Shown: positions 13,281 through 60,268 of the stretch, piece by piece
Layout: each line of letters starts with the position of its first letter
How positions within the stretch are numbered: the first letter of the stretch is position 1
Source: Desulfobulbaceae bacterium DB1
GTDB lineage: Bacteria > Desulfobacterota > Desulfobulbia > Desulfobulbales > SURF-16
Length of the DNA: 64,000 bases
Direction: 5' to 3'
Assembly (NCBI GenBank): GCA_001914235.1
Contig: MQUF01000006.1
Coordinates: 203,234 to 267,233, forward strand
Notes under the pieces: model-generated
The model's input: only the letters and a program-made list of their open reading frames with translations
The model's database searches: none
Told to the model about the DNA's origin: nothing
Translations under genes and position numbers: made by a program

Positions 13281-14822
13281 TCAGCGGGTATTCGGCCTTA
13301 CGAGATGTTTTCCGTCATCCTGAAGAATCAGTTCGGAAAATTTTATCGCCAATCGTTGCAGCTCGGGGATCGAAAGGTTGTCAATCCCTTCCATGCGGAC
13401 GGTTGTGGTGCGGCCGCGATTGTCTAGCGGCATCCATCTGGAGAAAAAACGGTCATTAACAGCCCCGGCAAAGCAGATGACCGATCTGGTTTGCCGGGCG
13501 GTGGCGAGGTGCTGGCAGCAGGAATCATAGCCGAAAAAAACATCGGCCTGATCGATAAGCGCCGAAAGCATGCCGATGCCGCCCTGCACGCAGACAAGGC
13601 CCTGTTTGAAATACGGTTTTTCTTGGTTGAAATCTTTTTCCGATATGTGCGCGGTCGCAAATCCCCTGCCGCTTATTTTGTCGACAAGTTTTATCGCCCT
13701 TTTTCTTTCATCCGGGTGACAACCGCTGTCAAGCACGACCATGGCCCCGGCATGCTGAAGCAGGCTGGACAGCAGTTCTTCCTCGAAAGGGTCGGGCAGT
13801 CGTTTGCGAGGATCATTGCCTACCCCGAGATTGACGGCGATTTTTTTGCTTTCTTTCGGAAAGCGGGTGAAAAAGTTGCGCACGGTCTGCTGGTGCACGG
13901 GGCGAATGGAGATGCAGGGCGCGATATCTTTTTTTTCATCCAGCAGACGGTTCAGCCAGACATTGGTCAGACTGCTGAGGCGGTGTGAGCTGTGCTGCTC
14001 CATTTCCCGTGAAGGAAAATAGCAGTAAGACCGGTCATCGATCAAGGGAAACAGGCCGAGTTGACTGAGTCGGCTGTCGGGATCGAAAAGAAGGGTGTTT
14101 TCCACCGAAGCTGCCTGCCATTCCTGTTCAAGCAAACGGTAAAGCGAGGTGAAGTAGGTCATTCGGCCGACAAGACCGCCTTCACGGTGATAATGCACCT
14201 TGGTCCAATGGACGCGGGGAAGTTCGGAAAAAATCTCGGCAAGATGCTGAGGGCCGAAAACAATCAGTTCAGCCTGGGGAAAAGTAACGAGAAGCCGATG
14301 AACAATGATGGAGGTCATGGCAACATCGGCGCCCACGGTGACCCGGGACAGCACAAGGATCTTGCGGATGTTGCGGCGCATGGAGCCGGAGAGCGCGCGT
14401 TCTTTTTTGATCCGGCGATAACGGGAGAATAACTGGTGCTCGTCGTGAAAGTGCAGATCGCCGAGCAGTTTGTCGAGAGCCCCGCCTTCAGTCCGGGTGC
14501 GGAGAAATGCCGTCATTCGCAGCAGGACCCGGCTGCAGATGTCGACACCGTCAGCGCTGAAATCATCGCACAACGGTTCGATAATATTTTTATAAAGGGC
14601 GACAACGGCAGCTTTTCGTGTCTGTTCGTTGTCCCTGGAAAGAGCCATGCGGCAAAGATGATCAACAACATCAAGATCCGGCGGCAGCTTGTTTGCGACC
14701 TGCGCCATGAACGATCGGCTCAAGTGATCGGCAATTGATTCAGGAGCGGAATGTTGCCTGACGGAAGTGTTTGCCGGTTGCGCCATGATGAGTTTATGTC
14801 CCTTTTTTGGGCCTGAAAACAT
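13281..14822 (-). CDS. Glycosyltransferase family 9 (heptosyltransferase)-like protein with a ~150-aa N-terminal extension
   Basis: The core ILVLSRVTVGADVAMTSI...IAVNLGVG....KR.P...GIGMLSALIDQADVFFGYDSCCQHLA resembles the GT9 fold. It lies next to the heptose kinase gene. Confidence 0.55.
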   Translation of the reverse strand: MFSGPKKGHKLIMAQPANTSVRQHSAPESIADHLSRSFMAQVANKLPPDLDVVDHLCRMALSRDNEQTRKAAVVALYKNIIEPLCDDFSADGVDICSRVLLRMTAFLRTRTEGGALDKLLGDLHFHDEHQLFSRYRRIKKERALSGSMRRNIRKILVLSRVTVGADVAMTSIIVHRLLVTFPQAELIVFGPQHLAEIFSELPRVHWTKVHYHREGGLVGRMTYFTSLYRLLEQEWQAASVENTLLFDPDSRLSQLGLFPLIDDRSYCYFPSREMEQHSSHRLSSLTNVWLNRLLDEKKDIAPCISIRPVHQQTVRNFFTRFPKESKKIAVNLGVGNDPRKRLPDPFEEELLSSLLQHAGAMVVLDSGCHPDERKRAIKLVDKISGRGFATAHISEKDFNQEKPYFKQGLVCVQGGIGMLSALIDQADVFFGYDSCCQHLATARQTRSVICFAGAVNDRFFSRWMPLDNRGRTTTVRMEGIDNLSIPELQRLAIKFSELILQDDGKHLVRPNTR

Positions 14823-14887: not shown

Positions 14888-15349
14888 TTAATGTTGCCGG
14901 CATGCGTAAAGGAGGGTGGGGCGGGTGAAATGACGGAGGGATCCGGGGAAAAAGAAAAGGGGGATAGCGATCAGCAGGTTGCGCAGGATAAGCAGGTAAA
15001 CCGGGCTTGTATTGCCGGTTCCGAAACAGCCGCAGTCGATGGGCAATTGCAGGTAGCCGCCGGAAACAAAAAGAAGAAGCAGGGTGAAGGCGAGATAAAG
15101 ACCGGCGATCATCCTGGCGAAAATTCCTGCCTTGATACCGATGAGGGCCAGAACGCCGAGAAGGATTTCCAGGGGAGGGTACCAGCGGGCAAGAAACAGT
15201 ATCTGATCAAGGGTGAGAATGTGCCGTTCCAGAAGGGATTCAAGCACATCTCCGACACCGGCGTCCCGTATCTTGACAAGTCCTGCCCAGACAAGAAGAG
15301 CCGACGCCAGATAGTAGTCAGTCACCACCAGGAAGCGGATCACCTTCAT
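14888..15349 (-). CDS. MauE/DoxX-type redox-associated membrane protein
   Basis: Four hydrophobic segments and the CGCFG motif (IDCGCFGTG). The start overlaps the upstream MCP stop (ATGA). Confidence 0.7.
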
Positions 15350-16785
15350 GACGGGTCGACAGGAGAATCGCCTTTGCCGGTTCCTTCCCAGAACTGCATC
15401 AATTTGTACATCATCTGATGCAATCTCTCCACCTGTTCCTTCACGTCCTGAACAGTAGCCGAGGCTTCTTCCGACATGGCAGCCTGGGATTGTACCATGC
15501 CGTCAATGCTGTTGACCGATTCGCGGATTTTTCCTTCGGTTTCCGACTGTCGTTTGCCGGTCTCCATGATTTTTTCCATCTGGCGGACAACCGAATCCGA
15601 GGCCGTGTTGACTTCGGCAAAGGTTGTTTTCAGGTTGTTCACCATATCGACGCCGGCGGTTACTTTTGTGTCGAGTCGTTTGATAATGGCGGCAACCATG
15701 CTTGATGTTTCCGCCGTCCGGGTGGCAAGGTTTCTCACTTCAGTGGCGACAACGGCAAATCCCGCCCCTGCTTCACCGGCGCGCGCCGCCTCGACCGCGG
15801 CATTTAAAGCCAGAAGATTTGTTTGAAAAGCAATATCTTCTATGACTTTGACCAGGGAAGAAATTTCCTTGTCCGCTTCCACCATCTCCTTCATGGCACC
15901 GACCACATCATTGATGGAACTGTTGGAATGAGTTGCCGTGCGATAGAGGTCGTTTGCCGCGTTTTCAGCGGTACGGGCGGCTTGCAGATTCTCTTCGGCC
16001 TGTGCCGTCATCTGCTCCATGGTCGATGCGATGCTGTCCAGGGAGGCCGAGGATGAGCTGGTCTCGGTTGCCAATTGAACGGACATGGCGTTGATGTTGT
16101 CAATGGCGTCGAGCAGCCCATGGGTTGCGTTGGTTGATTCCTGGCCCATCCAGTCGAGCTGGCGGGAAATGAGGGAAATCATGTAAAAGATGATTGCGCC
16201 GATCACGACCAGCAGTCCAATGGAGACAAGCAGCATTTTGTTGAGTTGCCTGCTGACGTCAAGGACATGGGCCATGGCCTCGTTATGACTGGCGGAGCTG
16301 TTTGCGACGATTTCGGCAAGGGACTGGAGGAGACTTTTGTTTTCTTTGTCGAAGGCGGCGGTCCATGTCGATTCTTCCCCGTATTGCTGATTAACGCTGG
16401 CGGAAACCATTTTCAGCCCTGCCTGATACGATGCCTGATAGGTTTTTTGCAGAGCGCCAATCTGCTTTGTTGCCTCGGGTACGGATTGGTTCAGTTGAGC
16501 GAGTGCTGCAAACTGATCAAGAATCTGTTTGTTGATGGTTTCCATGCCGGCAAGTTCGCTTTCCGTTCCCGCTGCCCGCGACACATTGAATTTTTCTATG
16601 ATATTGGTGACGCGGCCTTTTAATTCAATGGCGATTTTGGTTTCCGGATACACCTGCCCGCTCACCTTGCGAACTTCGAGGGTAAATTGTTTCGTCGCCA
16701 TCAGGGCGTAGGAAATAATAGCGCCGGAAAGGAGAAAGAGGAGAAGAAAAAAGAAATACAGTCTTCTTTTGCCGCCGAATTTCAT
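15346..16785 (-). CDS. Methyl-accepting chemotaxis protein
   Basis: Two TM segments flank a ~170-aa periplasmic region. The conserved signalling hairpin is [37 protein letters not shown]. Confidence 0.9.
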
Positions 16786-16904
16786 AAAAAATCTCTCGAA
16801 AAAGTCTGAACTGTTGGAAATAAAACAGCATCACAAAAACAGGAAAAGGAGATGACGTCTGGCCGCATCTCCTTTTTTCGCCAAAATCACAAACGTAAAA
16901 GCAT

Positions 16905-17627
16905 CTATTCAACCGGCAGTCCGGCCCGTTTCCATGCCAGTACGCCGCCATCCATGACGGCAAGATCAGTGTAACCGTTCATGTGCAGGAATTTGCCGCA
17001 GACGCCGACTTGTTTTCCGGCATGGTCAATGATAACTATTTTTTTGTCTTTGGGCAGGGTTGTGTATTTCTCATCCAGGTCATCAAGGGGGATATTGACG
17101 GCGCCTTTGATTTTGCCCACCTCAATAACCTCTTCACCGCGGATGTCGAGCATGACGATACCGCCGGCCTGGGCCTGAACATCGGCAGGGTTCAAGCGGG
17201 GAAGGTCGACATTGGGATATTTGACTTTGTTTTCAATGGGATACCCTTTTTTTGCCCAGGCGGGAAGCCCTTCGTTGTAGACCATGACATTGGTGTATCC
17301 CAGGGCAGTTGCCGCGTCCGCCGCTTTCTTGCTTTTGGTGCATTTGGGGCCCTTGCAGTAGAAAATGAGCAGTGATGCCTTGTCAGCCGGGAGCAATGGG
17401 TTGCCGGCAACCTTGCTGCTGGGGATATTGATGGAGCCGGCAATTGCCATTTCGTTATGTTCGATGGAGCTCAACGCATCAATTAAGGTGAGAGGTTCTC
17501 CTGCATCAATTTTCTTTTTCAGGTCGTCGGTGGTTATCAGAGAATCCGCCGCAAGGACCGTTGACTGAATGAAAAAAAGACAAAGCGTCAATAATGACAG
17601 AATACGGCAAAGACCAACTTTTTTCAT
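16905..17627 (-). CDS. Secreted tandem-rhodanese protein (CxGPxC active-site loop)
   Basis: ATG 17627 has an AGGAGG SD. Signal peptide MKKVGLCRILSLLTLCLFFIQSTVLAADS. Rhodanese domain 1 contains LIFYCKGPKCTKS; domain 2 follows. Confidence 0.85.
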   Translation of the reverse strand: MKKVGLCRILSLLTLCLFFIQSTVLAADSLITTDDLKKKIDAGEPLTLIDALSSIEHNEMAIAGSINIPSSKVAGNPLLPADKASLLIFYCKGPKCTKSKKAADAATALGYTNVMVYNEGLPAWAKKGYPIENKVKYPNVDLPRLNPADVQAQAGGIVMLDIRGEEVIEVGKIKGAVNIPLDDLDEKYTTLPKDKKIVIIDHAGKQVGVCGKFLHMNGYTDLAVMDGGVLAWKRAGLPVE

Positions 17628-17990
17628 GAAATCATCCTCCTGGTTTAATTTTTTTGATCCGCGCACAACACGCACTGTTCTTTTTTTGATGGAAAAAATC
17701 AGTGCCGCAAGTTGATTCCGTTGCAAGCTTATGCCATTATAAGGGGGAAAAAAAAATAAAATCAAAGGAAAAATTCAGGATAGAGGCAAGAGGAACATTT
17801 TGGCAATGCAAACATTTTCTCCATGACTTTTTCGATTTTGTTCGGCGTCGATTGCTCTCGTCAATTTCGGTTTGAGTTAAATTTTTGACTGTGATACCAT
17901 TTAAAAAATATTTTTTCGTAATATTAGCCGGATGCACAATGTGGTATTTGCCTTCCGGTTGAAAATCACAAATCCATTCGGAGGTTGTCT

Positions 17991-19307
17991 ATGCAGAAAA
18001 CGTTTTTGCGGAAATTTGTGCCGGTGATGATTTTTTTCTCATTGCTGGTTGGCTGTGCAACAACGGGCAGCGAAAAACAAGGCGGCAAGGCCGCTCAGGT
18101 CACCAGCGCCCAGACCGAGCAGAATGTCTATAAAGGCGAGGTGACGGGAAAGTCCAATAAGGCGAAAACAATATCCATCAAGGTCGGCAAGGATGCGGAA
18201 GCCAAAACCATGATGGTCAAGTTTAACGACCAGACCACGGGTCTTGAATTCGCCGAACAAGGTCAGGCCGCCATTGTCGCGTATAAGGTTGTCGGGAAGG
18301 ATAAGATAGCGACGGTCATCAAACCGAAACTGGCCCAACTGCCCAAGGGAACCTCCGAGGTCAAGACCGACTATGTTGCCGCCCTTATTGCCAAAGGCGG
18401 GAATTATCAGCTGATCGACTCTCGTCCGGCCGGTCGTTTTCACGCCGGCAGTTTGCCTTCCGCGGTCAGTATTCCTGTTGACAAGATCAAGAAGGAGGGT
18501 GCCTCCCTTCTGCCCAAAGATAAAAATACCGAGCTGATTTTCTTCTGCGGAGGCCCCACGTGAGGCATGAGCACCGAGTCCGCCGGTCTGGCGGCTGAAG
18601 CAGGGTACAAAAATGTAAAGGTATTTCTTGACGGCGCACCGGGATGGCAGAAGGCCGGTCATCATGTGGTTGCCAGCAATAATTTTGTCGAGAAAGGCAA
18701 TATCGTGCTGGTTGATCTGCGCGATGCGGCTGATTACAAAAAAGGTCATATTCCCCGCGCCTATAATGTCCCCTTTGCCGATCTTGAAGGTGCGGAGGAT
18801 GATTTCCCGGAAAACAAAACGGCCCCCCTTGTTTTTTACGGCAACAACGCGGTGAAGGCCTTTAAAACGGCAAAGAAGTGGGGATATAAAGGCTCGGCGG
18901 TGTATGAAGGAGGAACCAAGGCATGGACCGCGGCCGGCAAATCCCTGGATACATCCGCCTCTCCCAAAGAGATCACCTGGGTGAGAATTCTTGGGCCGGG
19001 TGAAATCGGGATTGCCGATTTTGTGAAAGTCGCGGGAAAACAACCTGCGGACAAGATTATCCTTGATGTGCGGACAAATGACGAGATCAAGGAAGGCATG
19101 TTTGCAAACGCCGTTCACATCCCCCTTGATGAGCTGGGCGCCAAAATGAACACCCTGCCCAAGAACAAGGAGATACTCATCCACTGCTCCACCGGGGCCC
19201 GGGCGGAAATGGCCTTTCAGGAGTTGAAAAAGGCAGGTTTCAAGACCCGGTATGTCATGGGAAATGTGGAATGCGATCCGGATGACGGGTGTGAAATTTC
19301 GGAATAA
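17991..19307 (+). CDS. Lipoprotein with three rhodanese-like domains, read through an in-frame UGA (probable selenocysteine at 18561-18563)
   Basis: Track ORFs 17985..18563 and 18567..19307 share one frame, separated only by TGA+GGC. The break splits a rhodanese domain (LIFFCGGPT-UGA-GMSTESAGLAAEAGYKNVKVFLDGAPGWQKAG). The paralog at 16905..17627 has Cys at the aligned position. Lipobox LLVGC. The third domain has HCSTGARA. Confidence 0.65.
18577..18596 (+). promoter_or_regulatory. Candidate bacterial SECIS hairpin
   Basis: AG(U)CCGCC-GGUCU-GGCGGCU starts 14 nt after the UGA. The 5' bulged U and GGUC-type apical loop resemble the upper part of the E. coli fdhF SECIS. Confidence 0.5.
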
Positions 19308-19343
19308 TTGACACGGAAGTTTCAACTTGTATTGATAAAAAAA

Positions 19344-19370
19344 GGCGATGCTGCCGCATCGCCTTTTTTT
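19344..19370 (+). terminator. Rho-independent terminator (A-run/T-run flanked, possibly bidirectional)
   Basis: GGCGATGC(19344-19351) pairs with GCATCGCC(19356-19363) across a TGCC loop, followed by T7. Confidence 0.75.
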
Positions 19371-19530
19371 ATGCGTCCTGTTCGGGTGTTTTTAATCGGA
19401 ACAGAGGAATGCGCTGCCGTGGTAAAAAAAACTTTCTTTCTGCGTTTCTCACCTCTATAATTTGTTTGCGGTATCAGCCGGTTGCCTGATGTGCTTTTCA
19501 ACCAAATTTAAAAAGGGAGAAAGTGGCGCG

Positions 19531-21303
19531 ATGATTGTTCCCAACATAAAAACAAAAATGGTTGTCATGATCTGCATTTCCCTGCTGGGGCTCTTTATTG
19601 TCTTTTTGAACGCCAATAAAGCACTGAATGCAAACATCGAAATCAGTGCACGGGTCAAGAGTGAAAAATTTGTTATGGCCATGGATATAGAAAAACTCGG
19701 TGCCCAGTCCCGCAAGTTGTCAAATGATGTCGAAATCAGCGCCACCACGGAATCTCTTGACAGTCTGGAAACGGCAAAACAGGACAAAACCGTTCTTCAG
19801 AAACAGATTGATGATATTGTTGCGGTATCAAAAAATGAGGAAGTGAAAAACACCCTTAATGAAATGAAGAAACTGACTGATCAGGTTCTTGACGCCGGCA
19901 GGCGATGGGTTGAATTTTCCTTTGCGCAGAAGTATGCCGAATCATTTGCCGCGGAGGAAGAATTCAAGGCTCTGAAAAAAGAATATTTTACCCTGATAAG
20001 CTCTTTGCAGCAGATGGCCCGTTCCGATCTGGAGCAATCGCTGGATCAGATTCATTCGCTTTCCAAACAAAGTATTCGTATCAATCTCGTTATCTTTGCT
20101 GTCTCCGTGCCGATTGTCCTTTTTTTGTCGATCGTCACTGTTTTTTCCATTATCCGGCCATTGGCGAAAACTGTGGAGTTCGCCGAAAGGGTGGCGGAAG
20201 GAGATGTTTCCCACCAGCTTGATATCACGTCAAAGGACGAACTGGGCAGCATGAGCAGGGCCTTGAATGACATGGTGCGCAGCCTTGCCCAGAAAAGCGA
20301 GGTGGCTGAGTCCATCGCCCAGGGAGATCTGTGTTGCAATGTCCCGATAGCTTCCGAGCGCGACACGCTTGGCCATTCGTTGCAGAAAATGGTGGAAAAT
20401 CTTGCCGCGATGATTAAAAACGTGCAGAAAAATGCCATCCATCTTTCCACCGCCTCTGATTCCATGTCCGGTTTGTCGATGCATCTTGCCGCAGGGGCGG
20501 AAGAGATGAGTGCACAAACGAAAGATGCGACAAATTGTATCAACGATATCAATGTCCATGCTCGCAATGTCACCACCACTGCCCGGAAAATGTCCGAAAA
20601 TATGGCAATCATCGCCGAGACCACCGAGCGGATGTCGGCTGCCATCGTCCGGATAGGAGGCAATGCAAAGGATGGCGCCGAGATAACCGAGACGGCGTTG
20701 ACCATGTCCGATAAGGCGACGAAAACAATCCTCTCCCTGCACGATACGGCCATTGAAATCGGCAAGGTGACCACGGCCATTAATGAAATTACCGAGCAGA
20801 CCAAGCTTCTCGCCTTAAACGCCACCATCGAGGCCGCCCGGGCCGGCGATGCCGGCAAGGGCTTTGCCGTGGTTGCCGGAGAGGTCAAGGAGTTGGCCAA
20901 GCAGAGCGCGGCGGCGGCGGAAAATATAGCAGCACTCATCGGCCAGGTGCAGAACAACACCGGCGAGGCGGTGCATGTCATCGGCGATGTGGCGGAGACC
21001 ATTAAGAAGGTTAATCTCTCTTCTCTCCAGATCAATCAGGCGGTGGAAGAGCAGATTCGGGAGGCACAGGGCATGGCGGCCGGTGTGGCGGATGTCAATG
21101 AAGGGGCAAACAACATTGCCTCCGCCATCAGTGAGCTTGCCGGGAATGCCAACGATACCACGGCCAATATCAATGAGGTCAAGGCTGTTGTCGACAGCAG
21201 CACGGAAGGAATTCATAAAATTTCCGATGCCGCCGCGGAACTGGCGGAACTGGCCGGAAGACTTGAAGGGCTTGTCGGGGAATTTCACCTGGAGAAGGCA
21301 TGA
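19531..21303 (+). CDS. Methyl-accepting chemotaxis protein with HAMP domain
   Basis: ATG 19531 has a GGGAGA SD (the track start 19462 is too long). TM, ~170-aa periplasmic region, TM, HAMP ([19 protein letters not shown]), then [35 protein letters not shown]. Confidence 0.9.
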
Positions 21304-46555: not shown

Positions 46556-48229
46556 CCTGAATCCGTGAGGTATCCCGGATTCTCCCTAAAAATTGTGGGG
46601 CGCGAAAAAATTTCAACACCGCGACCGCCAGAAATTTATATATTGCCAGCATATTGCTGGTAAATTGGGACATCGTCCCCGTTGTTCTTTGAAAAATTGC
46701 TATATTTGCCTGTTTTTAGGCGTATTTTCCCGGCAGGGCCTGCTGTTCAGCCACTTTCCGGCAAATTTCTCTTCTGTTCTTGCATTAGCCAAAGGCAAGC
46801 CGGTTATAAACGGCCTGAAACGAGTCAAATGCGCAACAGTGGCGGCTGAACCGCAGCTTCAGTTTCCTGCCGGTCTCAATCAGTCTGGCTGCACGGTACA
46901 TGAGTTCCTGAATAACGGTACGAATTCTCCTGCGCTTTGCCGAGTGGCGCACTGGTGAGCGATCACCGAGAAGGCCAAGCTGGCCGATAAACCGCAAGAT
47001 GTTATAAGCCAAGCCGGCCAAGGACATGATCAAGGAATTGGTCGCAAATTTTCCCGAAGGCAACCGCTCAAGATCCATGTCGGTTTTAAATTCGCTGTGA
47101 AACTGCTCGCTTGTGCCGTGGTCCCGGTAGAGCTTGATGATCTCTTTTTCCGGCAGGTAAAGGGATGTCCACCAGCCCTCAAGTTCTATATCCGGCACCA
47201 GCAGCAACTGGCCGCGTTTGTCAATGGTACGTTCAATCACGCGGACGATCAGGCGGGTACTGAACTCCTTGCCCTCGTGCTCCTGAAGCTGGTTGAAACT
47301 GAATACGGCAACCCGTTTGCCGCGTCGTGGTTCGCTCACTTCTCCTTCTTGCAGCCCACGGGCCAGCCAGGCGGGAAGGTCCTGCTTGCGGGGATTCCAT
47401 TTCAGGATGTAATCGACCTTTTTGTGGCCATAAAGCGTTGCTCGGGTCTCGACAGCATCGTGTCCGGAGTCAAGCCTGAATAACAGTGACTTTTTGGTTA
47501 AAGACTTGGCACGGGAGATGGTTTCCTGCAGAAAAGGAATAAAATTGTTTTGGCTGTGCTGGCTGCCCTCCCGGAACTCAAGATTAATACACCAGCCTTC
47601 CTCTCCCATGTAGGCGGCTATTGGCGCATAGCCGTCATAACCGTGATAGGTATGCTTGGAACCTTCTTTTTTGGTGCCGGAGTTGTCCATGCAAAAGACG
47701 TCCATATCGACGGCGACATGACCCATGGCCAAGGGGGTTACTTTTCCTTTGGCATTGCGGATGAACTCCGTGTAGGTGGAGGAAGCAATTGGCTGAAAAA
47801 CTGTTGCGGTTTCGTCAAGGCGCTGGCGCAAGGTTTCGGGCGAAGGAACCGCTTTGATGCCAAGTGATTGCTGGAAATACCTGTCGTCTTTCATGTCGGC
47901 AATGGCTTCGAAATCGCTTTTGCCAAGCGAGAGGAGCCCGAGATAACTGCGAATGACATCTGTATTGGCAATGTCCTTGGTGTCGGGTATCGCCTTTTTC
48001 AGCTTGGCGTTCAAGCTGGTAAAGCGATTGATACCGAGCCCGATCAGGGCCAGGCCGGAATGAGAGGTATAAAATTCGTCCGATGAGCGTTCAAGAATAA
48101 ATCGTTTCATTTTTTCACCTGCAGAGTGATGTTTTTAGACAGGCGAATATTGCAATATTTTTTGTTAAATTTCAAAATGTTATTTGATTATACAGACGAT
48201 TTTTACTGCAAAAATTTCACGGATTCAGG
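46556..48229 (-). mobile_element. Complete IS1380-family insertion sequence (~1.67 kb)
   Basis: 13-bp perfect terminal inverted repeats: CCTGAATCCGTGA (46556-46568) and TCACGGATTCAGG (48217-48229). Abutting flanks are TTACA (46551-46555) and ATACA (48230-48234). It carries a single transposase ORF. Confidence 0.85.
46785..48110 (-). CDS. IS1380 family transposase
   Basis: 441 aa. MKRFILERSSDEFYTSHSGLALIGL...YHGYDGY matches the recalled IS1380-type architecture. Confidence 0.85.
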   Translation of the reverse strand: MKRFILERSSDEFYTSHSGLALIGLGINRFTSLNAKLKKAIPDTKDIANTDVIRSYLGLLSLGKSDFEAIADMKDDRYFQQSLGIKAVPSPETLRQRLDETATVFQPIASSTYTEFIRNAKGKVTPLAMGHVAVDMDVFCMDNSGTKKEGSKHTYHGYDGYAPIAAYMGEEGWCINLEFREGSQHSQNNFIPFLQETISRAKSLTKKSLLFRLDSGHDAVETRATLYGHKKVDYILKWNPRKQDLPAWLARGLQEGEVSEPRRGKRVAVFSFNQLQEHEGKEFSTRLIVRVIERTIDKRGQLLLVPDIELEGWWTSLYLPEKEIIKLYRDHGTSEQFHSEFKTDMDLERLPSGKFATNSLIMSLAGLAYNILRFIGQLGLLGDRSPVRHSAKRRRIRTVIQELMYRAARLIETGRKLKLRFSRHCCAFDSFQAVYNRLAFG

Positions 48230-49171: not shown

Positions 49172-49999
49172 TCATGCTGCCTTTTCTTGTTGTAACGTTC
49201 CCCAGTATATTTCTTCTGGGAATTTTTTGCCAAGCCCTTGGTGACGCCGCTGTTTGTTATAAAATTCAAAGTAGTTGCGGAGTTCTTTTCTGGCTACCGC
49301 TATCGAGTCGTAGGCCTTGAGGTATACTTCCTCATATTTTACGCTACGCCATAAACGCTCGATGAAAATATTATCCCGCCAGCGGCCACGACCATCCATG
49401 CTGATCCGGATTCCATGGTCCTTGAGTTTGCTGGTAAATGCCTCAGAGGTAAACTGAGACCCCTGGTCAGAGTTGAAAATTTCAGGGCAACCATATCGTT
49501 CGATTGCCTCTTCCAGAGCAGCAAGACAAAACGATGTGTCCAACGTGTTGGACAGTCTCCAGGAAAGAACTTTCCGGCTGGCCCAGTCCATGACTGCTAC
49601 CAGGTACACATAGCCCTTGGATAAAGGAATATAGGTGATATCAGTCGACCATACCTGATTGGCCCGATCAATCGTCAGTCCGTTCAGCAAGTACGGATAT
49701 GTTTTATGGCCGGGATGCGGTTTGGAAAGTCTTGGCTTACGATAGAGTGCCTCAATTCCCATTTTCTTCATGAGGTTGCTGGTCCGGCCACGGCTGACAT
49801 GAAATCCGTTATCCAGCAGTTTGTCACTGATCCGGCGGCTTCCATAGAAAGGATACCGCAGGTGGATTTCGTCAATCAGCGACATGATGTTCAGCTCGTG
49901 CTCACTGCACGGTACTGGTTGGTAATACAGGCTTGATCGAGATAAATCAAGAATCTTGCACTGTCTGGTTACTGGCAAGGCGTGATTCGTAGAGATCAT
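49172..49999 (-). CDS. IS3 family transposase OrfB (rve integrase core)
   Basis: Motifs [37 protein letters not shown] and [14 protein letters not shown]. Confidence 0.9.
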
Positions 50000-51542: not shown

Positions 51543-52377
51543 ACAGAGGTGGCACCGGTTATTAGAATAGGTTAGCGGCTAAAATAAGGTGGAAAGCCGT
51601 CATGTTTAAGCCGCCAATTTGATAACCTGGCCTTTGTAGCCGGGTCGGTCTTTTTGCCAATATGCCCTCATCCAGAGTTCTGTCGTCAAGGTCGGAATTA
51701 GGACGCCGTGTGTTATAAAAATTAATCCAGCGATTGAGGCCTTGTCGTACCTCGCTTCCGGTTTCAAAAGCATGGAGATAAATACATTCGTACTTCAGTG
51801 AGCGCCATAGCCTTTCGATCATAAAATTATCTATCCAGCGTCCTTTACCATCCATGGAGATGCGGATGTCCGCGTCTTTGAGCGCATCGGTAAAATCCTC
51901 GCTGGTAAACTGGTTGCCCTGATCGGTATTGAAAATTTCTGGTTTGCCATAGCGAGCCAGGGCCTCTTCAAGTGCGGCCACGCAGAAATCGGAGTCCATG
52001 GTGTGGGATAACCGCCAGGACAAAACTTTGCGACTGGACCAATTCATAATCGCTACCATATACAGAAAACCCAGCCGCATCGGGACATAGCTAATATCAA
52101 CACACCAGACCTGATTGGCCCTGTTGATCGTCATGCCGCGCAACAAGGTAAGGATAAATCTTGTGCAACGGATGTGGTTTCGGGGTGTTCGGCTTCTGGT
52201 AAATGGCCGAGAGACCCATCTGCCGCATCAGGGGCGTCCGATTCGTTTGCGATTCACCCCATAGCCCGACGACGCAGATGCCGGGACATCTGTCGGGCTC
52301 CGCACCAAAGCGTTTCGAGATACTGCTCGTCGATCAGGTGCATCAATTCCAAGTTCAGGGCAGTTTAGACGAACAGG
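51543..52377 (-). pseudogene. Decayed, 5'-truncated IS3-family copy (orfB remnant with frameshifts, no orfA)
   Basis: The intact part 51562..52146 (NQVWCVDISYVP...FNTDQGNQFTS...IERLWRSLKYE) is related to OrfB at 49172. Upstream, orfB-like sequence (LIDEQYLE..., MRQMGLSAIYQKPNTPKPHP) lies in two other frames. The end sequence AGAGGTGG (51545-51552) matches the intact copy's end. Confidence 0.8.
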
Positions 52378-58757: not shown

Positions 58758-59615
58758 CTACTTATTTTGATTACTCTTATTTTCAAGCAGTGATTTGAAC
58801 CCTATTAATATCATCAACCCCAAAACAAAAACAAGCCACCCGGAAAAATCGTGAAGAAACCCCTGTGCCACTCCTTCGCCGAACCTGTGCGCAAGGGCCG
58901 CAGTACCCGTTAATCGGATGATATTAGCCAGTACAGCAATCGGTGCAGCAGCAAGAAAAAGAAGCCATTTTTTTATGACGGTTCCTTTTGCCATATAGGC
59001 AAGAACCGCACTCAGCGCGAACATAGTCACAAGTGACCGCAGCCCCGAGCAGGCATCAACTACTTCGAGAGTTGTTTGAGCGAGATGCAAAACATTCCCC
59101 TCACGGAAAATAGGGATTCCCAAGGCAAGGATCACCTTTTCAGTAATTGCGGATGCAAAGAGCTGCATCGGAAAGGCAAATTTGTTCCAGATAATAGCGG
59201 GAACAGGAATCATAAAAAAAAGATAGACAAGAGGAAACCAAATCTTTTTTGCAAATTCTTTCCCTGCCAAAAAAAGAGCTGCCCCAAAAAGGACAACAAT
59301 CATTGAAGTTCTTTGCAGGAAATATTCGGAACCTATTTTCGCAACAACAAGTTGCATGAGGCCGATGATTATCAGGACAAAGCCCCAATTTGTCGGGAGG
59401 ATACGCCCCTTCTTAAGTTCATCTCGCATTTCATAAATAAGATATGCGGATATAAACGGAATGAAATAACCGTGCGAGTAATTATCGTTAACCTCCCAGT
59501 CTGCTATCATTGTCAGGATAAAAGGATAGTAGAGGAAAGCAAACGCCGCAAAAAAAATAATTGCCTGCACACCCAATTTTCCGTGTGTTGCATTCATCTG
59601 AAAAGGCTTCGTCAT
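58758..59615 (-). CDS. Exosortase (EpsH/XrtA-like)
   Basis: Polytopic membrane protein with NDNYSHGYFIPFIS, VVDACSGLRSL and ANIIRLTG. Confidence 0.85.
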   Translation of the reverse strand: MTKPFQMNATHGKLGVQAIIFFAAFAFLYYPFILTMIADWEVNDNYSHGYFIPFISAYLIYEMRDELKKGRILPTNWGFVLIIIGLMQLVVAKIGSEYFLQRTSMIVVLFGAALFLAGKEFAKKIWFPLVYLFFMIPVPAIIWNKFAFPMQLFASAITEKVILALGIPIFREGNVLHLAQTTLEVVDACSGLRSLVTMFALSAVLAYMAKGTVIKKWLLFLAAAPIAVLANIIRLTGTAALAHRFGEGVAQGFLHDFSGWLVFVLGLMILIGFKSLLENKSNQNK

Positions 59616-60268
59616 ATTTCTTTCCCCGGCAGGTAATCCTGAAGTGTAACCATGACATCTTCCGCAAACTTTTTCACAAGCTCTTCAGTTTCCCGGATAT
59701 TCTCTTCCCTGGTCGGCGCCATGATACGAATAAACGAGCCATCCCGGCGCTGCTTGAAGAGGGCATCCAGAACTGTATAGATTTTATCCCAGTACTCGGA
59801 ATAAATTATTCTGCCTCGATTTTGAAACCAATACAACGTTATTTGCCGGTCAGCACCGTTCTGGATAATCATGGAATTTATGATGGATGATGGAGCGGAT
59901 TGAGGCTGCAACCGGACAGTTGAGAGCTCAGCAATTCCCCAGCCACCCCCAGGAAGGCAGTTGCGCGGTGAATGGTATCCGCCGGTTACGCCAATGGAAG
60001 AAAAGTAACTTACATATAAATTCACAACTGTTCCATTTCCAGAAGCATAATTGTACTCGATGTAATCGTTTACACCCAGCATATCGATTGTTGGCTGCGA
60101 CAGCGTCTTTGAACTGACAACCTTCCATTCTCCTATTTGCGTGGGGAACTGAGATAGAGGTTTTAGAATGGGAACATCTCTGACCGCTTGGCTAAGGTGT
60201 ATCGCCAGGTATGTAAGACCGAACAAGAGCAGTATGATAGTTAAGCGAAACGAAGGCTTTAATTGCAT
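59612..60268 (-). CDS. epsI: EpsI family exosortase-associated protein
   Basis: N-terminal TM segment, NLYVSYF....G..YHSPRNCLPGGGW. It overlaps the exosortase start by 4 nt. Confidence 0.8.
   Translation of the reverse strand: MQLKPSFRLTIILLLFGLTYLAIHLSQAVRDVPILKPLSQFPTQIGEWKVVSSKTLSQPTIDMLGVNDYIEYNYASGNGTVVNLYVSYFSSIGVTGGYHSPRNCLPGGGWGIAELSTVRLQPQSAPSSIINSMIIQNGADRQITLYWFQNRGRIIYSEYWDKIYTVLDALFKQRRDGSFIRIMAPTREENIRETEELVKKFAEDVMVTLQDYLPGKEI

Follow-up and report, generated by a model that had tools for sequence, protein, structure and literature searches.

A probable selenocysteine-containing rhodanese lipoprotein with a C-x4-U active-site loop in Desulfobulbaceae bacterium DB1 and its relatives

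Rhodanese-like selenoproteins have been an established class since the computational surveys of 2004-2005, so that a specialist would not be surprised by another one; the protein discussed here would be a new and uncurated member, claimed by none of the NCBIfam models. Form 1 of these proteins, predicted by Zhang and Gladyshev in 2005, is described in PMC13188914 as a PF00581 rhodanese with a UxxS motif, with WP_010941598.1 from Geobacter sulfurreducens as its exemplar. The same source gives a lead to a function, namely TsoB (NF045694, Haft and Tolstoy 2025), a rhodanese/DsbD fusion-like double selenoprotein of which it describes a UxxxxU (U-x4-U) motif in the rhodanese domain and a DsbD-like domain fused to it. 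Geobacter sulfurreducens also has ExtH (GSU2940), a rhodanese-family lipoprotein of 49 kDa encoded beside the MccSep gene (PMC13510729, PMC5877670, PMC6148476). MccSep is a periplasmic polysulfide reductase in which Sec is essential, and this selenoenzyme of a related phylum was recently shown to be essential for S0 respiration (PMC13510729). Cultured Desulfobulbales, for their part, are reported to have 8-16 selenoproteins each (PMC5029168 Table S2).

Here we focus on one locus in a 64-kb stretch of DNA (the window) from Desulfobulbaceae bacterium DB1, an organism of which we found no mention in the literature. Judging from comparative sequence evidence, positions 17991-19307 very probably form one selenoprotein gene, with selenocysteine inserted at the UGA of 18561-18563. 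A first-pass annotation of the window had proposed such a gene and had pointed to computationally predicted rhodanese-like selenoproteins as its precedent, which indeed exists (form 1, as described in PMC13188914). The features of the locus are collected in Table 1.

Table 1. Features of the candidate selenoprotein gene and its surroundings (window positions; domain limits are approximate)
Feature	Position	Strand	Basis
Divergent paralog, exported two-rhodanese protein with all-Cys loop FYCKGPKCTKS	16905..17666	-	sequence; Pfam
Promoter-like site TTGACT-16/18 nt-AATATT/TATTTT, 5' of the gene	17885..17914	+	consensus scan alone; weak evidence
Shine-Dalgarno GGAGG, 6 nt 5' of ATG 17991	17980..17984	+	sequence reading
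Predicted complete selenoprotein CDS, 438 codons including Sec191, plus TAA stop	17991..19307	+	single frame; tblastn relatives; three rhodanese stretches
Predicted signal peptide, lipobox L19-V20-G21-C22 (Cys22 codon 18054-18056)	17991..18056	+	sequence, MQKTFLRKFVPVMIFFSLLVGC then ATTG
N-terminal beta domain of unknown function	18120..18308	+	five strands, residues 45-107, AlphaFold2 model of P0013
Rhodanese domain 1, with C186-x4-U191 loop	18348..18674	+	Pfam; relative BH2092
Cys186 codon TGC, canonical rhodanese catalytic position of domain 1	18546..18548	+	in every ortholog examined
UGA, predicted Sec191	18561..18563	+	Cys in full-length homologs; TGA or TGC/TGT in 80 species loci
Putative SECIS hairpin, conserved core 18581-18593, loop 18585-18589	18577..18596	+	fold, pairing conservation, frozen synonymous sites
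Rhodanese domain 2, no active-site Cys (VFYGNNAVKA)	18675..18950	+	Pfam best stretch, residues 233-314
Rhodanese domain 3, classical loop H-C399-STGAR-A (Cys codon 19185-19187)	19008..19265	+	alignment; Pfam
C-terminal Cys pair C428...C434 (ECDPDDGCEI), terminal beta hairpin	19272..19292	+	alignment; P0013 model strands at residues 428-439
Terminator-like hairpin GGCGATG-CTGCCG-CATCGCC, then TTTTTTT	19344..19370	+	sequence reading

The in-frame UGA and its counterparts in related species

Two open reading frames, 17991-18560 (with an alternative upstream start, TTG 17985) and 18567-19307, share a single frame and are separated just by the TGA and the codon GGC, which alone intervenes before ATG 18567. 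The break lies within the stretch C186-GGPT-U191-GMS, in the first of the three rhodanese domains, and the read-through sequence over the junction is ...GGPT-U-GMSTESAGLAAEAGYK. A consensus terminator scan passed over the hairpin behind the gene and gave a neighboring site (19373-19389) instead. Such an arrangement of frames is not rare, as a naive scan of the 64-kb window yields 59 pairs of open reading frames with an in-frame TGA between them; the remaining pairs resemble adjacent genes or noise, and we reject them as further selenoprotein genes. An in-frame TGA is common by itself, and the excess over chance lies in the comparative evidence, that is, in the Cys column, the codon choice, and the frozen hairpin sites.

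The homolog alignment that the first-pass annotation had proposed as a check has Cys at the UGA column in all 93 full-length homologs, and the 23 "fragment" homologs all begin at the Met two codons past it. At the level of codons, we compared 80 loci found by tblastn in a collection of species-representative genomes (the DB1 genome lies outside this collection, and its best match in it is 82% identical). Here the column is occupied by TGA in 63 loci, by TGC or TGT in 17, and by TAA or TAG in none. Alignments to the relatives run through the TGA and cover residues 1-438, and both halves stay 45-82% identical over that length. The same split layout recurs at syntenic loci of other metagenome-assembled genomes, and cultured isolates (e.g., Desulfogranum marinum DSM 2058) are found among the TGA loci. 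Two marks of a bacterial selenoprotein gene are present, namely conserved coding sequence on either side of the in-frame UGA and a Cys/Sec pair. The presumably recoded UGA is conserved in about 60 related species. Sec is reconstructed at the root of their clade, and no fewer than nine Sec/Cys switches are counted.

The first-pass annotation had drawn its Cys/Sec pair from the divergently encoded paralog next door. That observation is correct, with the paralog's loop matching the spacing of FFCGGPT-U-GMS and placing a Cys at the UGA position, and the pairing is found in true orthologs as well, which makes it much stronger than the annotation could show. The claims of a shared frame and of a break within a rhodanese domain (the first of three Pfam rhodanese stretches) likewise hold, as does the prediction that a gene caller would split the gene. 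GenBank and RefSeq record it as two "rhodanese-like" or "hypothetical" proteins, cultured strains included; examples are WP_205221353.1, WP_423122941.1, and, in DB1, OKY75603.1 together with BM485_07710, where the 190-aa product from ATG 17991 is OKY75603.1 (BM485_07705). With records so systematically divided, dozens of genomes would carry a wrong gene model and the selenoproteome counts of Desulfobulbales would be too low. A curated family model would correct hundreds of records.

The hairpin downstream of the UGA

The annotation had also placed a hairpin 14 nt downstream of the UGA, and both the structure and its coordinates are right. It consists of A17-G18, a bulged U19, and C20-C24 on one side, the loop G25-G26-U27-C28-U29, and G30-G34 followed by C35-U36 on the other, with 21 nt between UGA and loop. 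The 32-nt segment folds at -12.6 kcal/mol with a stem of 5+2 bp; the 71-nt region overall is not unusually stable (z = +0.88). Published constraints on bacterial SECIS elements include a loop of 3-9 nt, a stem of at least 4 bp, a G in the first two loop positions, a spacing of 16-37 nt, and a minimum free energy of -7.5 or lower (PMC13188914), and the window hairpin lies within all of these. What the TGA loci have in common is the core CGCC-GGUCU-GGCG (a 4-bp stem CGCC/GGCG under the apical loop GGUCU), a 13-mer that occurs once in the window. Loop, 4-bp stem, and spacing are kept across the orthologs, and only the energy falls outside the constraints where nothing but the 4-bp core is left, as in many of them (-6.0 to -6.4 kcal/mol for the 32-nt segment, weaker than the -7.5 threshold).

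Only in TGA loci are the synonymous sites of the hairpin frozen; in Cys loci they vary. At third-codon positions +21, +24, +27, +30, and +33, TGA loci reach 1.8-2.0 bits and Cys loci 0.06-0.94 bits; the remaining third positions within TGA loci carry 0.15-0.78 bits. All four core pairs are paired in 100% of 54 distinct sequences, and one compensatory change, CG to AU, occurs in two loci (L011 and L012). Covariation scores higher than in 499 of 500 shuffles, a thin signal since the core barely varies. The hairpin also folds more stably at TGA loci (-8.2 kcal/mol) than at Cys loci (-6.2 kcal/mol; Mann-Whitney p = 4e-4). Frozen sites and the compensatory change point to selection at the level of the RNA. 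Rfam SECIS families gave no match in the window at gathering thresholds nor at 18540-18640 in a permissive scan, and the Rfam matches that did appear, Twister-sister and raiA-hairpin, are at chance level only.

The likeness to the SECIS of Escherichia coli fdhF, which the first-pass annotation had stressed, stands in part. Both have an identical apical GGUCU pentanucleotide, read as Gly-Leu (fdhF from NC_000913.3), above a short G+C stem, and the window shares with fdhF a bulged U and two further pairs. On the other hand, the stem sequence differs, the loop lies at +25-29 rather than at +22-26 as in fdhF (one codon further downstream), and the bulged U with its lower stem is confined to the window and a few relatives, the orthologs conserving only the 4-bp stem and the loop. 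Acting as a bacterial SECIS, the hairpin would bring SelB and its Sec-tRNA(Sec) to a ribosome that has the UGA in its A site.

Protein architecture, possible function, and rival readings

The product is predicted to be an exported lipoprotein of 438 residues; a beta domain stands at its N-terminus, three rhodanese domains follow, and there are two candidate active sites. Pfam PF00581 matches it with 144 bits (cut-off 22.2 bits) in three stretches, among which the loops C186-GGPTU and C399-STGAR both start with the Cys expected of a rhodanese active site. Domain 2 is probably non-catalytic. In domain 3, C399, T401, G402, and R404 are invariant in the homolog alignment, and conservation reaches at least 90% for S194, C428, and C434. 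The N-terminal beta domain has no Pfam match; in the AlphaFold2 model of the Cys ortholog P0013 (overall pLDDT 90.5) it is modeled with a pLDDT of about 90. A profile search against 1.84 billion representatives shows the C-x4-C form of the domain 1 loop across a very large exported-protein family. As to the lipid anchor, the annotation's claim of a lipoprotein agrees with the LVGC lipobox, and lipobox-type N-termini recur among the homologs, but they are not universal: the Cys is missing at locus L064, and in H. ferrireducens the signal peptide of the ortholog is of the ordinary kind.

We propose that the 438-residue pre-protein would be exported and that Cys22 would serve as its lipid-anchor site in this organism. 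Domain 1 would offer the canonical Cys186 and, five residues on, where this active-site loop ends, Sec191; domain 3 would supply a classical C-x-x-G-x-R sulfurtransferase loop, and domain 2 would have no catalytic Cys to add. Sulfane sulfur of polysulfide, thiosulfate, or S0 may be taken up as a persulfide, which the Sec191 selenolate, held by the loop beside Cys186, would attack to form a Se-S (or Se-S-S) bridge. Transfer to a partner, or else reduction, could then resolve this bridge and release sulfide, and Sec would speed the exchange relative to the Cys-Cys version of the relatives. The protein is thus pictured as probably a periplasmic sulfane-sulfur carrier or reductase, a tentative inference to which we give even odds or slightly less. 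A bolder version, which we consider rather unlikely, has the C-x4-Sec rhodanese lipoprotein as a so far uncharacterized selenium-dependent periplasmic persulfide/polysulfide reductase or carrier, kept since the ancestor of Desulfobulbales (that is, the common ancestor of much of the order, including sulfur disproportionators, Desulfurivibrio, and relatives of cable bacteria) and performing a key step with S0, polysulfide, or thiosulfate. If this were true, part of the sulfur cycling by Desulfobulbales would be selenium-limited.

Several rival readings of the locus have to be weighed. Translation could stop at UGA 18561 and reinitiate at AUG 18567, giving two real polypeptides, a split rhodanese whose halves may reassemble. 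Every TGA locus keeps the AUG two codons past the UGA, a place where Cys loci encode either Met or Leu, and gene callers and RefSeq do annotate two proteins, but a split would sever the active-site loop, the stop codon is TGA throughout and gives way to Cys codons rather than to sense codons at large, and the frozen synonymous sites make a SECIS-type hairpin. Moreover, a Shine-Dalgarno core 4-10 nt 5' of the AUG is found in 0 of 58 distinct TGA loci, where the Shine-Dalgarno-like sequences sit at 13 nt or 1 nt from it. Altogether, we regard two separate products as very unlikely. That the UGA would instead encode a standard amino acid, either by genome-wide reassignment (code 4 or 25) or by near-cognate Trp/Cys read-through without Sec machinery, has in its favor that no such machinery is seen nearby: selA, selB, selC, and selD are all absent from the 64-kb window, and tRNA genes of any kind are absent both from it and from 60 related loci. 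However, TGA terminates 27 of the 53 window genes, which indicates the standard genetic code, simple read-through would have no use for the conserved downstream hairpin, and the lineage is documented as Sec-decoding (PMC5029168). This reading strikes us as highly improbable. A pseudogene or an assembly error, be it a nonsense mutation or a miscalled base, might come to mind for a window derived from a metagenome-assembled genome. The chance of it is negligible, and it is effectively refuted by the comparative data, with the identical TGA in 63 independently assembled species, cultured isolates among them, and both halves of the protein conserved.

If we keep to a single gene with Sec191, the same selenoprotein could still have another job, with oxyanions of selenium, tellurium, or arsenic in the place of sulfane sulfur; it might reduce or deliver selenite, or work in the manner of an arsenate reductase. 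Such a role would fit with ExtH, the rhodanese-like lipoprotein of Geobacter, which belongs to a cluster implicated in selenite/tellurite reduction (PMC5877670, PMC6148476). Rhodanese domains also occur in selenium metabolism, and the tRNA 2-selenouridine synthase MnmH is among the weak NCBIfam matches of our protein. Against it, no ars, ext, or selenium-metabolism genes adjoin the gene in the window or at most loci, and domain 1 lacks the C-x5-R loop, a feature of Cdc25/Acr2-type arsenate reductases. Overall, we find an oxyanion role unlikely. The gene neighborhood counts against the sulfane-sulfur role as well. The window holds genes for LPS/EPS biosynthesis, IS elements, DnaE, chemoreceptors, and similar; the conserved neighbors are the housekeeping genes SpoU, Gmk, YicC, PfkB, and DUF5619 and not genes of sulfur metabolism. 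A cluster of MauE, chemoreceptor, and paralog is confined to the four closest relatives, an ortholog of the paralog lies nearby in only about 11 of the 80 loci, and multiheme cytochromes do so in only 4 of 80.

Returning to the sulfane-sulfur role, the importance of MccSep for S0 respiration in a related phylum makes the protein a reasonable candidate for another selenium-dependent sulfur step. It would in any case represent a natural experiment on Cys versus Sec in a rhodanese active-site loop, with its many switches, set in the periplasm of sulfur-cycling anaerobes.

Comparison with known rhodanese proteins

Compared by motif and description only, form 1 shares with this protein a rhodanese domain with one Sec, and the local motif U191-G-M-S194 agrees with UxxS within PF00581. 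As described, form 1 too occurs in Thermodesulfobacteriota and is a computational prediction of unknown function. The CxU form 3 protein rhodanese_LYCAU (NF041203) can be set aside, with 47.6 bits against a cut-off of 115, its best match on domain 3, and a motif here that is CxxxxU. The protein is not a TsoB either, since it reaches 50.2 bits against the 805-bit cut-off of NF045694, and this through the rhodanese part only, which matches domain 1 (residues 138-229). Going by the motif described for TsoB, each has a pair of chalcogen residues in a rhodanese loop at an identical x4 spacing, the first of the pair being Cys here and Sec in TsoB. Moreover, the DsbD-like membrane domain is missing here, and a beta domain and three rhodanese domains are present instead.

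ExtH is, by description, a rhodanese lipoprotein of similar size with a lipobox, from a related phylum with an active S0 and polysulfide metabolism. It is not reported as a selenoprotein, and it sits in extHIJKL, whereas the gene here has no ext-like, porin, or cytochrome neighbors. Among solved structures, the top Foldseek matches of the P0013 model are multi-rhodanese sulfurtransferases, including the three-domain YnjE from the periplasm of E. coli as well as 1yt8 and 6mxv. These resemble our protein as exported multi-rhodanese proteins with one classical C-x-x-G-x-R site, but they lack Sec, the C-x4-C loop, and the N-terminal beta domain, and the low TM-scores and 13-21% identity imply a different domain arrangement. 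Finally, BH2092 from Bacillus halodurans (3o3w, 3nhv) is a single-domain, all-Cys structural-genomics protein of a Gram-positive bacterium, without an assigned function; it is the closest solved sequence relative of domain 1 and carries the same C-x4-C loop, YCWGPACNG as against FFCGGPT(U)GMS here.

Comparative evidence at the in-frame stop

Translation of 17901-19310 gives one frame from the ATG to the TAA (19305-19307), with the TGA as its sole break, just as the first-pass annotation had read it; GGAGG lies six bases upstream of the ATG. The residues around the break are ...ELIFFCGGPT, the stop, and GMSTESAGLAAEAGYKNVKV... When Cys is put in place of the stop, Pfam scores the 438-residue product at 144 bits for rhodanese, in three stretches. 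The break indeed lies within a rhodanese domain, namely the first; the spacing claimed for the loop of the divergent paralog is likewise identical. An in-frame TGA between two ORFs is unremarkable on its own, as a naive scan returns 59 such pairs in the window. The 71-nt region around the candidate hairpin is also no stabler than its shuffled versions (z = +0.88). What carries the argument is the comparison with relatives.

A search of 5.8 billion proteins provided the 120 best matches examined here. Among these, 94 exceed 400 aa, and the loop is visible in 93; each of these has C-G-G-x-T-C-G-(M/L)-S there, its second Cys falling precisely on the UGA column. A further 23 matches are "fragments" of 243-247 aa, every one starting at a Met two codons past that column. 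DNA encoding such fragments has the same layout at syntenic loci: only 3 nt separate the end of an upstream ORF from the ATG. When 1.84 billion representatives were searched exhaustively with the profile, 543 clusters reached E of 1e-30 or better, and fragments flanking the Sec column turned up again, beginning at position 196 of the profile or stopping at 193. The proposed Cys/Sec pairing is borne out at the DNA level as well. A scan guided by the profile, with each species represented by one genome, yielded 80 loci, all Desulfobulbales-type and including the cultured Desulfogranum marinum DSM 2058 and Hydrosulfovibrio ferrireducens CB1MN (DB1 itself lies outside this collection, where its best match is 82% identical). 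Query residues 1-438 align through the stop at 45-82% identity, and the column codon is TGA in 63 loci and solely TGC or TGT in 17, with neither TAA nor TAG in any of the 80.

On a rough neighbor-joining tree the Cys forms are scattered, and Fitch parsimony requires at least nine Sec/Cys switches with Sec at the clade root. Some Cys-form orthologs retain hairpin relics (L076:5777, L081:6122, L021:6574, and L028:6544 among the scanned loci), such as CGCC-GGUCAA-GCGG and CGCC-GGCAU-GGCG. These suggest recent Sec-to-Cys conversion, in agreement with the rooting, and the Sec state appears to be ancestral in the family. Two species, represented by L034 (1606, 6568) and L035 (1735, 6562), have the gene twice on one strand, in a TGC (Cys) and a TGA (Sec) version roughly 5 kb from each other; such tandem paralogs could reveal a division of labor between the two forms.

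Different readings of the stop need to be weighed. A reassigned code is excluded by the 27 of 53 genes in the window that TGA closes, and a pseudogene or assembly error by the presence of TGA in 63 independent assemblies. Termination at the UGA followed by re-initiation would draw on the AUG two codons downstream, which is invariant in 60 distinct TGA sequences (Cys forms have Met or Leu there). However, re-initiation would cut an active-site loop and does not account for why the stop is always TGA, why Cys codons replace it, or why the hairpin is there. Moreover, a Shine-Dalgarno core 4-10 nt upstream of this AUG occurs in 0 of 58 distinct TGA loci, where SD-like sequences sit at 13 nt or 1 nt. 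The AUG could be invariant through common descent, through an effect of codon context, or as a fail-safe restart site.

Selenocysteine decoding is supported at the lineage level only, as for DB1 itself the window alone was examined; it holds no tRNA, selA, selB, or selD. Desulfotalea psychrophila has been reported to encode 12 selenoproteins (PMC1794560), and Table S2 of Peng et al. 2016 lists 8 for Desulfobulbus propionicus, 11 for D. japonicus, 15 for D. mediterraneus, 14 for Desulfocapsa sulfexigens, 16 for Desulfotalea, and 13 for Desulfurivibrio alkaliphilus (PMC5029168). Taken together, the comparison upholds the selenoprotein interpretation, and the gene is very probably a genuine selenoprotein gene.

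The hairpin downstream of the UGA

The proposed hairpin folds as originally drawn. With the U of UGA numbered 1, the core C21-G22-C23-C24 / G25-G26-U27-C28-U29 / G30-G31-C32-G33 is common to 60 distinct TGA loci and codes for Ala-Gly-Leu-Ala. Its third-codon positions (+21, +24, +27, +30, and +33) carry 2.0, 1.79, 2.0, 1.79, and 2.0 bits in TGA loci vs 0.38, 0.52, 0.28, 0.94, and 0.06 bits in 19 Cys sequences (those of the 17 loci with Cys alone and of the Cys paralogs in L034 and L035), while the remaining third positions of TGA loci vary (0.15-0.78 bits). Third positions frozen at the hairpin, and in TGA loci only, point to selection on the RNA and not the protein. All four core pairs form in every one of 54 distinct sequences; at pair 24-30, L011 and L012 have A-U in place of the C-G of the other 52, a compensatory change. 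Both the covariation score and the paired fraction exceed 499 of 500 shuffles, and also every slid register. The loop variants GGUCA, GGUUC, and AGUUU always retain G-U at loop positions 2-3. Mean hairpin energy is -8.2 kcal/mol in TGA loci vs -6.2 in Cys loci (p = 4e-4), and the CGCC-GGUCU-GGCG 13-mer occurs once in the window (0.09 expected). Recoding of UGA 18561 as Sec is strongly supported by sequence comparison; SelB, loaded with Sec-tRNA(Sec), would dock on the GGUCU hairpin and bring Sec to this codon.

The likeness to the E. coli fdhF SECIS (NC_000913.3; UGA CAC GGC CCA UCG GUU GCA GGU CUG CAC C...) holds in part. The apical GGUCU is identical and is read as Ala-Gly-Leu in both genes, although it lies at +25-29 in DB1, one codon further downstream than in fdhF (+22-26). 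In the window the stem extends through a fifth pair C20-G34, the bulged U19, and pairs G18-C35 and A17-U36 (-12.6 kcal/mol), but this lower stem varies between species, the core alone being conserved in the 54 distinct sequences. The hairpin of the window lies within the published bSECIS limits (PMC13188914); orthologs with the 4-bp core only are less stable than the energy limit of -7.5. Rfam contains no matching SECIS family for the hairpin.

Protein architecture, neighborhood, and possible function

The DB1 protein has the claimed lipoprotein signal (MQKTFLRKFVPVMIFFSLLVGC/ATTG, lipobox LVGC), as do most orthologs, though that of H. ferrireducens (L064:5998-6100) has an ordinary signal peptide (...SPAFA/ADPAP) without the lipobox Cys. 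Judging from these predicted signals, export is general in the family and lipid anchoring is not universal. In a confident AlphaFold2 model of P0013, a Cys ortholog with 52% identity (mean pLDDT 90.5, pTM 0.80), residues 45-107 form a beta domain of five strands, followed by three rhodanese domains and a beta hairpin at the C-terminus. Foldseek against the PDB finds only multi-rhodanese sulfurtransferases (1yt8, 6mxv, EanB, and the three-domain periplasmic YnjE), with low TM-scores indicating a different domain arrangement. In the domain 1 loop C186-G-G-P-T-U191-G, Cys186 takes the canonical catalytic position and Sec191 the last of the six. Domain 2 lacks Cys and is probably noncatalytic; domain 3 has the classical loop C399-S-T-G-A-R404, invariant in the alignment, and a C428...C434 pair is conserved at the C-terminus. 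Among the family-profile matches are giant proteins, each of which has rhodanese-like stretches at 7-14 separate places: P0178 (2327 aa), P0252 (1654 aa), P0304 (1332 aa), and P0280 (1197 aa).

Features of the window around the selenoprotein gene candidate
Feature	Position	Strand	Remark
513-aa protein	13281-14822	-	no significant Pfam domain; sub-threshold GT9 match only
MauE-chemoreceptor-paralog cluster	14888-17666; 19489-21303	-; +	MauE-family membrane protein, two methyl-accepting chemotaxis proteins, two-rhodanese paralog
Divergent paralog	16905-17666	-	exported two-rhodanese protein, loop LLIFYCKGPKCTKS
Probable selenoprotein gene	17991-19307	+	rhodanese lipoprotein
In-frame TGA	18561-18563	+	predicted Sec191
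Invariant AUG	18567-18569	+	two codons past UGA
Candidate SECIS	18577-18596	+	hairpin
Terminator hairpin	19344-19370		GGCGATG-CTGCCG-CATCGCC plus seven T, 3' of the gene; clear
Weaker terminator site	19373-19389		given by consensus scan, which does not list 19344-19370
DDE transposase	46785-48110		mobile element
rve integrase	49172-49999		mobile element
rve integrase	51562-52146		mobile element
Exosortase EpsH + DUF3485 pair	58758-60268

The gene's neighbors are housekeeping genes (SpoU, Gmk, YicC, PfkB, and DUF5619), and multiheme cytochromes lie nearby in only 4 of 80 loci, which calls for caution against over-reading a sulfur function. Very large multiheme cytochrome ORFs occur just downstream at L082:7602-12440 and L085:6525-9128 (13 and 22 CxxCH). 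The MauE-chemoreceptor-paralog cluster is limited to DB1 and its four closest relatives and is possibly a sensing or redox module peculiar to this lineage. Synteny between the gene for the 513-aa protein and the selenoprotein gene extends to 15 of 80 loci, 14 of which have the TGA form. Farther along, three mobile-element genes break a long LPS/EPS glycosyltransferase region.

In rhodaneses the loop backbone wraps around the Cys sulfur, so that residue +5 is adjacent to it; a selenolate there would be well placed for attack. Sec191 could thus attack a Cys186 persulfide, or polysulfide directly, forming an Se-S or Se-S-S bridge to be handed on or reduced, with domain 3 as a possible classical sulfane-sulfur acceptor or donor. 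DsbD proteins carry reducing power across the membrane. The curated selenoprotein TsoB joins a rhodanese domain that carries U-x4-U to a DsbD-like domain (PMC13188914), and MccSep, a periplasmic polysulfide reductase of Geobacter, requires its Sec (PMC13510729); we count both as support for a redox-active Cys186/Sec191 pair. The MccSep gene adjoins that of ExtH, a 49-kDa rhodanese-family lipoprotein (PMC13510729, PMC6148476, PMC5877670). Periplasmic sulfane-sulfur transfer or reduction has slightly under an even chance of being the function, and we regard the handling of selenium, tellurium, or arsenic oxyanions as improbable.

Relation to known rhodanese-like selenoproteins

As predicted, gene callers split the gene: GenBank/RefSeq give two products in DB1 (BM485_07705, 190 aa; hypothetical protein BM485_07710, 246 aa), and the split recurs in D. 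marinum (WP_205221353.1, 247 aa) and H. ferrireducens (WP_423122941.1, 192 aa, plus a 245-aa product). With the class known and the host lineage rich in selenoproteins, interest is moderate; the value lies in a widespread family (TGA in 63 of 80 species), its apparently ancestral Sec, and its systematic misannotation. The family also offers a clean natural Cys/Sec comparison in a rhodanese active site of sulfur-cycling bacteria.

Rhodanese-like selenoproteins are, as had been noted, an established, computationally defined class, counted earlier in Sargasso Sea data, Olavius symbionts, and sequenced genomes, and the DB1 gene is an uncurated addition to it. A 2026 review distinguishes five forms: UxxS, UxxG, CxU (NF041203), UxxG, and TsoB UxxxxU (NF045694) (PMC13188914). 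The two of these forms that have an NCBIfam model do not take in the DB1 protein, which scores 47.6 bits against NF041203 (cut-off 115) and 50.2 against NF045694 (cut-off 805). The FYCGGxTCxLS motif runs throughout a very large exported multi-rhodanese family, some members having two such domains, and a loop of the same C-x4-C form (YCWGPACNG) occurs in B. halodurans BH2092 (3o3w, 3nhv), which among solved structures is the nearest relative of domain 1. Compared by motif only, U-G-M-S of the DB1 protein fits "form 1" UxxS, with Geobacter WP_010941598.1 as exemplar.
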